Shown: one piece after another, positions 4,752 to 15,044 of the stretch
Position numbering within the stretch: the stretch's first letter is position 1
How the letters are laid out: the number at the start of each line of letters is the position of its first letter
Virus record (IMG/VR): IMGVR_UViG_2728369187_000007
Location: 1 to 20,139 of that record
Source of the DNA: a virus
Taxonomy: Duplodnaviria > Heunggongvirae > Uroviricota > Caudoviricetes
Reading direction: 5' to 3' (one strand)
DNA: 20,139 nucleotides
Position numbers and translations under genes: made by a program
The notes under the pieces: generated by a model
The model's input: the letters and a program-made list of their open reading frames with translations, nothing else
What the model was told of the DNA's origin: nothing
Databases searched by the model: none

Positions 4752-4809
4752 AAAAATGGCGGCAGAGCAGTCACGGAGTAAAACTGATACCGCCAAACGT
4801 CACCAGAAA
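4752..4809 (-). ncRNA. dicF: DicF small regulatory RNA (ftsZ-targeting sRNA of Qin-type prophages)
   Basis: Reverse complement reads UUUCUGGUGACGUUUGGCGGUAUCAGUUUUACUCCGUGACUGCUCUGCCGCCAUUUUU, near-identical to the DicF sequence as I recall it. Ends in a GC stem plus U-run; located between the leader and dicB. Confidence 0.75.
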
Positions 4810-5860: not shown

Positions 5861-5915
5861 AATTTAGAATAACCTAACATAAGAGGCAAGTGTTTTTTGT
5901 TAGATTAGTCTAACA
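5861..5915 (-). promoter_or_regulatory. Left operator/promoter region (OL/pL-like): two operator palindromes flanking a leftward promoter
   Basis: Perfect 18-bp palindrome TGTTAGA-TTAG-TCTAACA at 5898-5915 and a weaker site TTTAGA-ATAA-CCTAACA at 5863-5879. Minus-strand promoter candidate: -35 TTGCCT (5884-5889), 17-bp spacer, -10 TAAATT (5861-5866). Confidence 0.55.
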
Positions 5916-5951
5916 AAAAGAGTGGGCGCAACTAATCACTTGAAAAGAATG

Positions 5952-8581: not shown

Positions 8582-8896
8582 CGAGATTAAAGTGCATTAG
8601 TTAAGATGTAAATTGACATTTTCATGGCATAGGGTAGAGGTAGCGTGGTTGTCTGCTTTGTGCCATGAACTGATGTCGCTTGTGTGCGTGGCAATTAGTG
8701 TATAACGGATATCATCAGACTCCAGCAGTAGCATTGCTTGAGCATACTAACATATGAAATCTTTAGTTAACGTAAGATAAATTAGATTTAGTTTTTTTGA
8801 GTATGAGCTCATAAATAATCAAAAAAACTTGATACGCCATATGACTTTGATTTATTTTGGAAAAACATAAAGGTAATGTAATGTAAAGAGGAAAAT

Positions 8897-10384: not shown

Positions 10385-10656
10385 CTTACATCCATCTCCA
10401 TTAAGAAATCTTGCTATTGTTCTTATGGATCGTCTTTCTGACTGATTTCATATTGGCGAGGTAAAGGTAGTTAAGTAGAATGGCTGCGGGTGCTTGAGGC
10501 TATCTGCCTCGGGCATGAACACCAAAGGCAGATAGAGAAAAGCCCCAGTTAACATTACGCGTCCTGCAAGACGCTTAACATTAATCTGAGGCTCAATCTA
10601 TGAACGGCAAATCTAGGTTAGCCTCTTACGTGCCGAAAGGCAAGGAGAAGCAGGCT

Positions 10657-10812
10657 ATGAAGCAGCAAAAGGCGATGTTAATCGCCCTGATCGTCATCTG
10701 TTTAACCGTCATAGTGACGGCACTGGTAACGAGGAAAGACCTCTGCGAGGTACGAATCCGAACCGGCCAGACGGAGGTCGCTGTCTTCACAGCTTACGAA
10801 CCTGAGGAGTAA
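10657..10812 (+). CDS. hokD: Hok/Gef-family membrane toxin (HokD/RelF-like)
   Basis: 51-aa product MKQQKAMLIALIVICLTVIVTALVTRKDLCEVRIRTGQTEVAVFTAYEPEE with the single TM helix and conserved Cys of Hok toxins. RBS AAGGAGAAG upstream of the ATG at 10657. Confidence 0.85.
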   Translation: MKQQKAMLIALIVICLTVIVTALVTRKDLCEVRIRTGQTEVAVFTAYEPEE

Positions 10813-12986: not shown

Positions 12987-13346
12987 ATGCGTATAGAGTT
13001 TGTTTTGCCTTATCCGCCGACGGTGAATACTTACTGGCGACGTCGTGGCAACACATATTTTGTATCAAAAGTCGGTGAGCGTTATCGCCGTGATGTGGCA
13101 CTAATTGTTCGCCAGCAGCGGTTGAAATTAAACCTGTCCGGAAGGCTGGCAATAAAAATTATTGCAGAGCCACCGGATAAGCGCCGCCGCGACCTGGACA
13201 ATATCCTGAAGGCACCACTGGATGCGCTGACGCATGCCGGACTTCTTATAGACGACGAGCAGTTTGATGAAATCAATATTGTGCGCGGACTGCCTGTTCC
13301 TGGTGGTCGGCTGGGGATAAAAATCACAGAACTGGAGTGCGCATGA
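12987..13346 (+). CDS. rusA: RusA-family Holliday junction resolvase
   Basis: 119 aa with the conserved PDKRRRDLDN catalytic region and a GGRL...I motif near the C-terminus. RBS AAAGAGG. Confidence 0.85.
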   Translation: MRIEFVLPYPPTVNTYWRRRGNTYFVSKVGERYRRDVALIVRQQRLKLNLSGRLAIKIIAEPPDKRRRDLDNILKAPLDALTHAGLLIDDEQFDEINIVRGLPVPGGRLGIKITELECA

Positions 13347-14032
13347 ATAACCAGTATTTACAGTTTGTGCGTGAGCAGCTCATTATCGCTACCGCTGATT
13401 TGAGTGGGGCAACAAAAGGTCAGCTTGAAGCCTGGCAGGAGAATGCCATGTTTGATACAGGGCGTTACAGGCGTAAAAAAATCCGGTACCGCGATGAAGT
13501 GACTGGAAGAATGATAACGCGGGATAGTCCACCGATACCGGGAAAACAATCACTGGCGAAAGGCTCATCAATTGCTCTGGTAAGTCAGGTTGAGTTTTCG
13601 ACATCATCATGGCGACGGGCAGTTCTGTCTCTTGAAGAACATCATAAAGCCTGGTTGTTGTGGTGTTACAGCGGGATTATTTGTTGGGAATATCAGATCG
13701 CGATAACACAGTGGGCGTGGAATGAATTTAATACTCAATCCGGTACCAGAAAAATTGCAGGGAAAACGCAGGAACGCCTGAAAAAATTAATCTGGCTGGC
13801 GGCGCAGGCAGTAAAAGCAGAACTTTTTGGTGGGGAAGGTTATGAATACCAGGAGCTGGCATTACTGGCGGGAGTGACAACTAAAAACTGGTCCAAAACA
13901 TTTACTCGTCACTGGGTTGCAATGAAACACATTTTTCACCGACTTGATAGTGAGGCTTTATTGTTTGTAATGAGAACACGTTCAAAACAAAAGGCGGCAT
14001 TTTCAAAGCAAAGTGTTGCAAAAGTAGATTGA
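13343..14032 (+). CDS. Late-gene antiterminator Q-like protein (putative)
   Basis: 229 aa; ATG overlaps the rusA stop (ATGA). Last gene before the promoter/terminator/lysis region. Assignment is by position, not by a recognised motif. Confidence 0.5.
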   Translation: MNNQYLQFVREQLIIATADLSGATKGQLEAWQENAMFDTGRYRRKKIRYRDEVTGRMITRDSPPIPGKQSLAKGSSIALVSQVEFSTSSWRRAVLSLEEHHKAWLLWCYSGIICWEYQIAITQWAWNEFNTQSGTRKIAGKTQERLKKLIWLAAQAVKAELFGGEGYEYQELALLAGVTTKNWSKTFTRHWVAMKHIFHRLDSEALLFVMRTRSKQKAAFSKQSVAKVD

Positions 14033-14044
14033 AAGGCATATATT
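14016..14044 (+). promoter_or_regulatory. Candidate late promoter (pR'-like) overlapping the 3' end of the Q-like gene
   Basis: -35 TTGCAA (14016-14021), 17-bp spacer, -10 TATATT (14039-14044), about 50 nt upstream of a strong terminator. Confidence 0.35.
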
Positions 14045-14095
14045 TCATGCAAATCTGATATTTTGCCGATTTTGTACGTGATGGCAAAAGCAAAC

Positions 14096-14121
14096 AAAAC
14101 CCGCCCACAAGCGGGTTTTTT
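14096..14121 (+). terminator. Rho-independent terminator (tR'-like)
   Basis: AAAACCCGC-CCACAA-GCGGGTTTT stem-loop followed by a T-run. Confidence 0.65.
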
Positions 14122-14226
14122 GTGCCACTTATCTCGGATAGACATGGTGAATGCGCTGGTGGAGGAGATAAGGGTGATTTTTGAATGCTTGCAACATTGA
14201 TTTCGTAACGTTATTATCCTGCGCCC

Positions 14227-14302
14227 GGCCCTTTAGCTCAGTGGTGAGAGCGAGCGACTCATAATCGCCAGGTCGCTGGTTCAAATCCAGCAAGGGCCAC
14301 CA
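14227..14302 (+). tRNA. tRNA with anticodon CAT (elongator Met or Ile2-type)
   Basis: 76 nt. 7-bp acceptor stem GGCCCTT/AAGGGCC, D-arm GCTC...GAGC, anticodon loop CTCATAA, T-arm GCTGG-TTCAAAT-CCAGC, encoded CCA. G1-C72 pair argues against an initiator. Confidence 0.85.
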
Positions 14303-14303
14303 G

Positions 14304-14380
14304 CCGCCACTAGCTCATCAGGAAAGAGCGTCAACCCTTTAAGTTGAGTGTGCGAGGTTCGAGTCCCCGGTGGCGGTCCA
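14304..14380 (+). tRNA. tRNA-like gene, anticodon TTT (Lys) as read, atypical anticodon loop
   Basis: 77 nt. Perfect 7-bp acceptor stem, D-arm GCTC...GAGC, anticodon stem TCAAC/GTTGA with loop CCTTTAA (C at position 33), T-loop TTCGAGT with one A-C mismatch in the T-stem, encoded CCA. Confidence 0.6.
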
Positions 14381-14382
14381 GT

Positions 14383-14458
<76 letters not shown>

Positions 14459-14461
14459 TAT

Positions 14462-14536
<75 letters not shown>

Positions 14537-14541
14537 GTTAG

Positions 14542-14669
14542 AGTCTTTCAGTCTGCGATGATGGGAAATCCCGGAGTGACTGAAAGACGTTTAAGTTATG
14601 AATGATCGCCTTTTTTTGCAAAATTGCTGTGCAGAAATACTAACCTTCGGGCAGGCGATCATTCATAAG
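14542..14669 (+). other. Two long perfect inverted repeats downstream of the tRNA cluster
   Basis: IR-A: AGTCTTTCAGTC (14542-14553) pairs with GACTGAAAGAC (14578-14588), 11 bp, 24-nt loop. IR-B: TTATGAATGATCGCC (14596-14610) pairs with GGCGATCATTCATAA (14654-14668), 15 bp, 43-nt loop; the left arm is followed by T7. Confidence 0.6.
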
Positions 14670-14828
14670 CACTCTGCTTTTATTCCGATTAACTGTGGGT
14701 GGTTTGTTGGATAGAGTGCTTTCCTTTCTGTATATATCGTTTCGCCCGCTTTTGCGGTTTTTTCTTTTCAAATCCCTTTCATTTCTCAGTGTAAAACTAC
14801 GCCATCCGTTATTTGCGGAGGTGAGGCT

Positions 14829-15044
14829 ATGAAATCCATGGACAAAATTTCAACGGGCATTGCCTACGGCACCTCCGCAGGCAGTGCTGGCTACTGGTTT
14901 TTACAGTGGCTTGATCAGGTCAGTCCGTCACAGTGGGCTGCGATTGGTGTACTGGGGAGTCTGGTTCTGGGCTTCCTGACTTATCTGACAAATCTGTACT
15001 TCAAAATCAGAGAAGACAAGCGTAAGGCTGCACGGGGAGAGTAA
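14829..15044 (+). CDS. Class II pinholin (phage 21 S-like) with dual-start motif
   Basis: 71 aa, [24 protein letters not shown]..., two TM segments. Met1 and Met4 give the S21-type 71/68 antiholin/holin pair. Confidence 0.85.

Follow-up and report, generated by a model that had tools for sequence, protein, structure and literature searches.

The stretch of DNA analysed here, referred to throughout as the window (20,139 nt), belongs to an Escherichia coli lambdoid prophage and includes a sok/hok locus as well as DicF. E. coli strain 165 has an identical region, whose annotation reads, in order, RusA, antiterminator Q, four tRNAs, a class II holin, YdfR, lysozyme, lysis protein, HNH and terminase. 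Mapped to the window from this annotation, the Q gene spans 13343–14032. A promoter scan identified a late promoter-like site resembling PR′ at 14016–14044 on the + strand, followed on the same strand by a strong, tR′-like intrinsic terminator with a T run at 14096–14119 (14016–14125 for the site together with the promoter). By sequence, the two resemble a PR′/tR′ pair and would mark the start of the late leader; sub-threshold Rfam matches to isrK and isrJ fall at 14048–14121. Further downstream lies a sigma-70 promoter-like site (TTGCAA-17 nt-TATTAT, 14189–14217, + strand) that is separated from the first tRNA by 9 nt including a G+C-rich stretch and is presumed to be the promoter of the tRNA operon in the lysogen. 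A promoter for prophage tRNAs has been mapped between tR′ and stx2 in the Stx phages of EHEC (PMC7547250). The tRNA cluster itself, Met/Ile(CAU), Lys(UUU), Thr(UGU) and Gly(UCC), occupies 14227–14536 on the + strand, with tRNA-Gly (14462–14536) as its last member, and the class II holin gene that opens the lysis cassette (14829–15044, + strand) starts with an ATG at 14829.

The first-pass annotation of this DNA had pointed to two inverted repeats between the tRNA cluster and the holin gene, in the leader of the late transcript. Both statements hold: tRNA-Gly ends at 14536, ahead of the repeats, and the holin ATG lies beyond them, while Q, the promoter-like site and the tR′-like terminator are found upstream and the holin gene downstream. 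The hairpins formed by these repeats are part of the late leader and also the 3′ trailer of an apparently autonomous tRNA operon.

A repeat search recovered the first inverted repeat exactly as it had been described, with 11-bp, 100% complementary arms at 14543–14553 and 14578–14588 and a 24-nt spacer. The second, previously given as a 15-bp stem with a 43-nt loop, exists but is one pair longer, its 100% complementary arms of 16 bp (14596–14611 and 14653–14668) enclosing a 41-nt spacer, and a third repeat (14667–14675 and 14713–14721) adjoins it. When arms of 11 bp or more and spacers of up to 60 nt are counted, the window has four perfect inverted repeats, whereas 200 dinucleotide-preserving shuffles of its 20 kb have 0.3 on average. 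An 11-bp repeat arose by chance in 26% of these 200 shuffles and one of at least 13 bp in 3.5%, whereas none of the 200 yielded a 16-bp repeat. The 11-bp stem on its own is therefore unremarkable and only the 16-bp stem is remarkable, so that the earlier view of both stems as improbable by chance stands for the longer one and falls for the shorter. Both stems are nonetheless real, because they are conserved in relatives.

On the + strand, the 239-nt RNA from 14537 to 14775 folds at −78.7 kcal/mol (z = −4.96) into three consecutive hairpins, H1 to H3. Structure prediction, proposed earlier as a check, thus turns both repeats into hairpins and adds a third hairpin and a terminator. H1 (14543–14588, + strand), recovered by the repeat search and by consensus and single-sequence folding, has a lower stem in which the 11 perfect pairs are lengthened to 13 bp by G-U and C-G pairs. 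Above it lie an asymmetric internal loop (GAUGA at 14557–14561 opposite GA at 14574–14575) and a 4-bp upper stem (14562–14565/14570–14573) capped by a variable tetraloop. Inspected by eye in an alignment of 32 variants, the internal loop and the pairs that close it vary little or not at all. The distance from the last tRNA to the start of H1, also read by eye, is 4–6 nt in three loci, namely the window and L124, where that tRNA is Gly, and L119, where it is Met/Ile.

H2 (14596–14668, + strand) is bounded by a perfect outer stem of 15–16 bp that closes a three-way junction. Inside it, an 8-bp sub-hairpin (14613–14620/14630–14637) carries AAAUUGCUG as its 9-nt loop and is followed by a CC-UUCG-GG mini-hairpin (14644–14651); the interior sequence UUUUUGCAAAAUUGCUGUG is almost invariant across relatives. 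In the relative L156, a 32-nt deletion has removed the H2 interior and the stem is retained with three G-U pairs (by eye). H3 (14668–14721, + strand) abuts H2 directly and is built of a basal stem of 8–9 bp, a 7-nt bulge and an upper stem of 6+4 bp; the sequence of its apex and 3′ side, GGGUGGUUUGUUGGA, is almost invariant, three of its pairs are altered on both sides, and G-U pairs are conserved. It is swapped for unrelated sequence in eight loci and missing in L119. Folding further revealed a weak intrinsic terminator on the + strand (CCGC-UUUU-GCGG followed by U6, 14746–14763), which is a degraded allele of the GCCCGC-UUUU-GCGGGC of relatives. The first-pass annotation had missed both H3 and this terminator behind it. 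In nearly every version with readable downstream sequence an intrinsic terminator stands 10–25 nt past the last hairpin, although these terminators share no homology from clade to clade; in phage HK639 the same terminator site was annotated by the depositors and is also found by a terminator scan.

These hairpins recur across homologues, one of the checks by which the first-pass annotation proposed to judge them. RNAalifold applied to 34 diverse versions returned the same three hairpins as in the window. Standard pairs fill 98.2% of the 2020 pair cells, compared with 38–47% when the 3′ partners are slid by 1–3 columns, and 12 of the 60 pairs are changed on both sides, compared with 1–5 after sliding, most of this covariation separating two main clades so that the independent events are fewer than the cell counts. 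Neither the observed percentage paired nor the covariation score was matched in any of 500 shuffles. Six of the double-changed pairs belong to the outer stem of H2, and double changes are also present within clades, at alignment columns 84/100, 69/128 and 73/124 and in several H1 variants. Aligned separately in 32 variants, H1 has 96.7% of its cells paired and five double-changed pairs.

The same alignments reveal the strand on which pairing matters. G-U cells number 279 and A-C cells 33, and a hand count on the alignment tables gives 11 clade-wide pair positions with G-U and one with A-C. For the consensus fold the energies are −64.3 kcal/mol (+ strand) and −28.4 kcal/mol (− strand), and all 34 sequences fold more stably as the + strand. 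Pairing is maintained by selection, as RNA on the + strand. The suggestion that the repeats might be protein-binding sites is, in its purely DNA-level form, disfavoured by the asymmetry between G-U and A-C.

Selection has also acted on the loops. Between the two clade consensuses, 26 of 120 paired columns differ, compared with 29 of 79 unpaired columns, with the linkers differing most (4/7 and 6/9 columns) and the H2 interior at 8 of 45 columns; since the latter differs at so few columns, some loops are more constrained than the stems. The loops whose conservation exceeds that of stems are the K-turn-like loop of H1, AAAUUGCUG and GGGUGGUUUGUUGG. Judged from their sequences, such invariant loops would imply at least one specific factor that recognises the RNA.

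A K-turn consists of a C-stem, a 3-nt bulge, tandem G-A and A-G pairs and a non-canonical (NC) stem. This sequence pattern is present in H1 at 14555–14565 and 14570–14577, between flanking stems that covary: a C-stem (GC/GU), the bulge GAU, tandem G-A and A-G, and an NC stem starting with U-G. Of the 32 H1 variants, 31 retain the tandem G-A/A-G (by eye), and the loop fits the description K-turn-like. There is a likeness to box C (RUGAUGA) in the H1 strand GCGAUGA and to box D (CUGA) in the strand CGGA, but the upper arm of H1 has only 4 bp and a variable tetraloop, and the likeness is one of sequence pattern only. E. coli is not known to have an L7Ae-type K-turn-binding protein.

The 292-bp interval that contains the element occurs in 530 of 5426 complete E. 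coli genomes (about one in ten), always on the chromosome, with a median of one and a maximum of five copies per genome; among the matches listed, no RefSeq E. coli row carries an annotation for it. Blastn against a phage collection returned six records, four of them near-identical and two representing HK639 (GenBank and RefSeq) at 76% identity. Pattern scans, two of IMG/VR and one of GTDB genomes, brought the set to about 150 loci. The true GTDB matches are confined to Enterobacteriaceae (Escherichia, Shigella, Enterobacter, Phytobacter, Yokenella and Citrobacter); 12 of the 20 GTDB pattern matches, in non-enterobacterial taxa, were discarded as chance, having no blastn similarity. Most of the 62 distinct versions of the element belong to a ‘window type’ or an ‘HK639 type’; several are outliers. 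A dispersed repeat of the REP or MITE kind was rejected on the basis of the median of one place per genome and the single copy per prophage.

All three hairpins are present in 124 of the 148 loci covered by a module count, H2 and H3 in 12 and H1 and H2 in 8. Rarer sets are H2 alone (2 loci), H1 alone (1) and H1 with H3 around a gutted H2 (1). One of the two H2-alone loci, L081, looks like a chance match. The varied combinations fit hairpins that behave as independent units. Upstream of H2/H3 lies either tRNA-Gly directly or protein-coding accessory genes without a tRNA, and downstream, in all loci examined, comes the lysis cassette, with holins of different families. The element closes the accessory (‘moron’) segment on its 3′ side, past Q and before the lysis cassette, and in all loci examined it is placed between functional units of the polycistronic transcript, tRNA or accessory genes on one side and lysis genes on the other. 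Every locus examined in detail belongs to a prophage late region.

Two relatives are informative about this setting. The diverged locus L123 repeats the layout of the window, with a PR′-like promoter, tR′, a TTGCAA-17-TATTAT promoter, four tRNAs and H1–H3. In HK639, tRNA-Gly is a pseudogene that has lost its 5′ half (27.5 bits against a threshold of 29), and the promoter scan found no promoter-like site between Q and the holin gene; the three hairpins are intact and followed by the annotated terminator. Because the hairpins of HK639 have been kept without a working tRNA or a local promoter, they probably matter in the Q-dependent late transcript too. Taken together, the element represents a family of structured non-coding RNA in lambdoid phages and prophages of Enterobacteriaceae.

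Known families do not account for it. Rfam searches of the window and HK639, at the gathering threshold and with E up to 10, returned only tRNAs and sub-threshold noise; in the literature, the conserved oligonucleotides matched only one unrelated paper, and nothing specific was found on prophage 3′-ETS sRNAs. Identity with PasA or PasD was rejected, as blastn-short against the published PasA and PasD1 fragments gave no match and the PP2 region of E2348/69, which holds PasA and PasD2, is without the element; AsxR-type and StxS-type sRNAs were likewise rejected for want of a sequence match. Neither ARAGORN nor the Rfam tRNA model called a tRNA or cloverleaf in 14537–14721. H1 was also considered as a duplicated T-arm of tRNA-Gly and rejected, the two having only the 7-mer GATGATG in common (p = 0.18 against shuffles); the earlier idea of a remnant of a tRNA-associated element is thus right in that H1 is tRNA-linked and fails on its similarity to tRNA-Gly, which is not significant. 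A promoter in the H2 loop (TTGCAA, 16 nt, TACTAA/TACTGA) was dismissed, having a poor −10 that lacks the final T, being unconserved and not being flagged by the scan. The combination of a K-turn with GGGUGG prompted a T-box-like or attenuator reading, which was rejected because Rfam gave no T-box match with E up to 10 and is further disfavoured by terminators that differ between clades, which H3 does not. A put-like antiterminator was rejected as well, with no blastn match to HK022 and with Q present in both the window and HK639. The element is absent from Rfam and is neither annotated nor described as an RNA in the sources searched.

What we have is a module of three hairpins in + strand RNA, with constrained loops, at the boundary between accessory and lysis genes and with a terminator behind it. 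Our best reading, held tentatively and at a little under an even chance, is that it would act in cis as a processing and stability module of the late leader and tRNA-operon trailer. In the lysogen, the module would form a trailer of about 230 nt on the prophage tRNA operon, transcribed from the candidate promoter at 14189–14217 and ending at the terminator; during lytic growth it would lie inside the Q-antiterminated late transcript. Excision of the tRNAs by RNase P and RNase E would cut that transcript, and the hairpins would mark the cut ends. On one side they may shield the 3′ side of the upstream tRNA or accessory RNA from 3′ exonucleases; on the other, the downstream lysis and structural mRNA would be left with a base-paired 5′ end that begins no more than about 6 nt from H1, which could resist 5′-end-dependent attack by RNase E. 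RNase III, a double-strand-specific nuclease, may in addition cut the long stems, much as it is reported to do in the lambda late leader.

Several observations sit uneasily with this cis-acting reading. It leaves unexplained why the K-turn-like loop, AAAUUGCUG and GGGUGGUUUGUUGG are more conserved than the stems, a terminator alone would protect a 3′ end, and the covariation, lying mostly between two clades, reflects fewer independent events. The stems, moreover, approach but do not reach the length of typical RNase III substrates, which in the classical case have about 20 bp, or about two helical turns, with internal loops allowed: H1 has 13 bp, a 5/2 loop and 4 bp, H2 has 15–16 bp, and H3 has 8–9 bp, a bulge and 10 bp. 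A close rival, possible though on balance unlikely, is that the processed trailer (H1–H3 or H2–H3 with the terminator) accumulates as a stable small RNA acting in trans, whose invariant loops would either pair with RNAs of host or phage, making it a sponge or regulator in the manner of 3′ETS-leuZ and the prophage anti-sRNAs, or bind and sequester a protein. The excess conservation of loop sequences speaks for it, as do the gene-like layout with a terminator behind nearly every version, the retention of the element beside a non-working tRNA in HK639 and the location, a niche that holds known sRNAs (AsxR/AgvB, PasA/C/D, StxS, lambda 6S and LPR2). One RNA with one function would, however, not be expected to have its hairpins shuffled and lost independently, and the terminator, normally the Hfq-binding module, is unconserved in sequence. 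HK639 offers no promoter for such an RNA, Q-modified polymerase would read through the terminator, and comparisons with Rfam and the PasA and PasD1 fragments gave no homology to known sRNAs. In a more specific version, which we find rather doubtful, H1–H3 would be a factor-binding K-turn RNA, processed out of the tRNA or late transcript, whose invariant loops would do more than mark that transcript: in trans, they would occupy a host RNA-binding protein, nuclease or sRNA as a decoy or sponge; tRNA-targeting defence would be one example of a setting.

The remaining readings are each unlikely. The first-pass annotation had raised the possibility that the hairpins are RNase III sites that serve to free the tRNAs from the late transcript, which we consider improbable. 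[quoted passage not shown] (1988, Virology 167:568), as cited in PMC7547250. Against this, H2 and H3 are also found after protein-coding genes without any tRNA, HK639 has kept its hairpins beside a tRNA-Gly pseudogene, and stems of 13–16 bp fall short of some 20. Release of tRNAs needs RNase P, RNase E and exonucleases, and RNase III is not known to be required for maturation of E. coli tRNAs at either the 5′ or the 3′ end. We regard as very improbable an element working at the level of transcription, whether as a put-like RNA that modifies polymerase or as an attenuator that controls the terminator and leakage into the lysis genes. H2 and H3 are adjacent stem-loops just upstream of a terminator, and HK639, which carries the module, was reported by King and colleagues in 2011 to use RNA-mediated antitermination in its early operons. 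However, no region from HK022 or another put-bearing phage appeared in the phage-collection blastn, an RNA antiterminator is not needed where Q is present, and read-through into the holin gene from a constitutive tRNA promoter would be harmful; terminators that vary between clades while the hairpins do not leave no conserved antiterminator pairing.

It is equally hard to believe that the repeats are DNA-level palindromes without RNA function, be they protein-binding or recombination sites or quasi-palindromes corrected by template switching. The window has perfect arms, modules are exchanged at the mosaic boundary where the element lies, and quasi-palindrome correction can mimic compensatory change. 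Palindromes in DNA predict no strand bias, yet G-U far exceeds A-C both in cells and at clade-wide positions, the consensus fold of the − strand is far weaker, and L156 retains its H2 stem with G-U pairs. Finally, a 38-codon ORF at 14598–14714 (MNDRLFLQNCC...GWFVG) spans H2 and H3, and an ORF of equal length with the same C-terminus is open in both main clades, with a hypothetical protein annotated there in one or two phage records. That it encodes a 38-residue micro-protein is scarcely credible, and we rejected the candidate for its frameshifts, TTG start and absent codon-position bias. Specifically, no Shine-Dalgarno sequence is visible by eye, the two clades differ in their start codon (ATG or TTG), about one-quarter of the copies are truncated by one-base changes in the length of a T run, and the 32-nt deletion in L156 is out of frame. 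Differences between the clades are spread 11:14:15 over the codon positions, without third-position bias, and the differing codons comprise 4 synonymous and 15 non-synonymous changes.

These results add a well-supported structured RNA family to the leader between Q and the lysis genes of lambdoid phages, a region that governs Shiga-toxin and lysis expression and in which regulatory RNAs are already known. If the processing and stability reading is true, it would explain how phages can keep tRNA genes within the late transcript while the lysis and structural mRNA downstream stays stable; if the module acts in trans, it would represent a new phage–host regulatory RNA. Either reading is testable directly by standard E. 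coli genetics.

The wider class to which the element belongs, non-coding RNA elements of the lambdoid late leader, is already known, and its members and some more distant systems offer points of comparison. The tRNA cluster of phage T4 yields stable, structured, non-tRNA RNAs called species 1 and 2; these resemble the element as structured RNA co-transcribed with a phage tRNA cluster, in an unrelated type of phage. A sponge for sRNAs, 3′ETS-leuZ, was reported by Lalaouna and colleagues in 2015 to be cut from the 3′ external transcribed spacer of the E. coli glyW-cysT-leuZ tRNA operon. The element is similar in lying between the last tRNA and the intrinsic terminator of the operon, as in the window and L123, from where it would be freed as a by-product of tRNA maturation, but it is about four times longer, far more structured and found also without tRNAs.

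Closer in location are the prophage sRNAs: AsxR and AgvB, from the accessory-gene site downstream of PR′ (PMC4104026), PasA, PasC and PasD, from the same class of site (PMC8550237; bioRxiv 10.64898/2026.05.13.724894), StxS, downstream of PR′ (PMC7547250), and the 6S and LPR2 RNAs of lambda, again from that class of site (bioRxiv 10.1101/2024.10.31.621285). With these the element has in common its location between Q and the lysis genes, its non-coding nature and its association with a terminator, whereas it has no homology to them, is longer and is dominated by long stems. Phage lambda itself differs in sequence, showing no similarity and being absent from the blastn matches, and the leader described here additionally carries tRNAs. 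The late leader of lambda nevertheless occupies the same niche, as an untranslated region that runs from the Q-dependent late promoter and terminator to the holin gene, and it too folds into several long, imperfect hairpins.

Between H3, the last of the three adjacent hairpins, and the holin gene lies a terminator (14744-14765) that occupies the same site in L008, L011, L018, L043, L063 and other related loci, and its sequence varies between near-identical prophages, the window included. The 3' arm occurs as GCGGGC, GCGGGT, GCGGTT (the allele of the window) or GCGTTT, and across these alleles the stem goes from 6 bp to 3-4 bp. Because stem length varies in this way, how well the holin gene is insulated from the predicted tRNA promoter may, judging from these sequences, also vary from strain to strain. 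Two further related loci carry deletions that could be used as natural mutants. In L122 (1912-1962), the interior of H1 is joined to the 5' half of tRNA-Gly, and in L156 (410-569) the interior of H2 is short by 32 nt, with the H2 stem kept.

In phage HK639 (L002), a predicted tRNA-Asn and a tRNA-Gly pseudogene lie directly downstream of tR' (2337-2488). The pseudogene scores 27.5 bits, under the threshold of 29, and by eye resemblance to tRNA-Gly is left only in its 3' half. Given that no promoter-like site was found at the tRNA region, the HK639 tRNA genes look like decaying genes beside an intact hairpin module.

Among the four tRNAs of the window, tRNA-Lys(UUU) (14304-14380) has the weakest score against the Rfam tRNA model (44 bits, versus 65-74). 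Inspection by eye places a C at the normally invariant U33 of its anticodon loop (CCUUUAA) and an A-C mismatch in its T stem. These features point to a possibly unusual phage tRNA and, if so, could bear on tRNA-Lys-targeting defences. The tRNA with a CAU anticodon (14227-14302), called tRNA-Met by ARAGORN and tRNA-Ile in RefSeq for an identical sequence, is probably a lysidine-modified tRNA-Ile2.

Elsewhere in the prophage, an Rfam match to the sok antitoxin RNA (10488-10662, + strand, 110 bits) indicates a hok/sok locus, and DicF is matched at 4757-4808 (- strand, 73 bits). The early region also holds two A+T-rich, intergenic, perfect 11-bp inverted repeats, TTTTTGTTAGA...TCTAACAAAAA (5894-5919) and AGTTTTTTTGA...TCAAAAAAACT (8790-8829).

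At the holin gene start, a perfect 10-bp inverted repeat (14814-14823/14870-14879) makes the Shine-Dalgarno region (GCGGAGGUG) complementary to codons 14-17. The holin N-terminus, MKSM, would permit a possible dual-start holin/antiholin arrangement, as in lambda S. In Rfam, isrK and isrJ match the short interval between PR' and tR' (14048-14121) at E = 0.014-0.037, under the gathering score, and this interval is the positional analogue of the short late-promoter RNAs lambda 6S, StxS and IsrK. Like the leader of the window, the lambda (L191) late leader from tR' to S (995-1368; fold z-score -4.25) carries several inverted repeats that are long but imperfect, with 13-15-nt arms, along with a perfect 10-bp hairpin followed by a T run (1232-1261).
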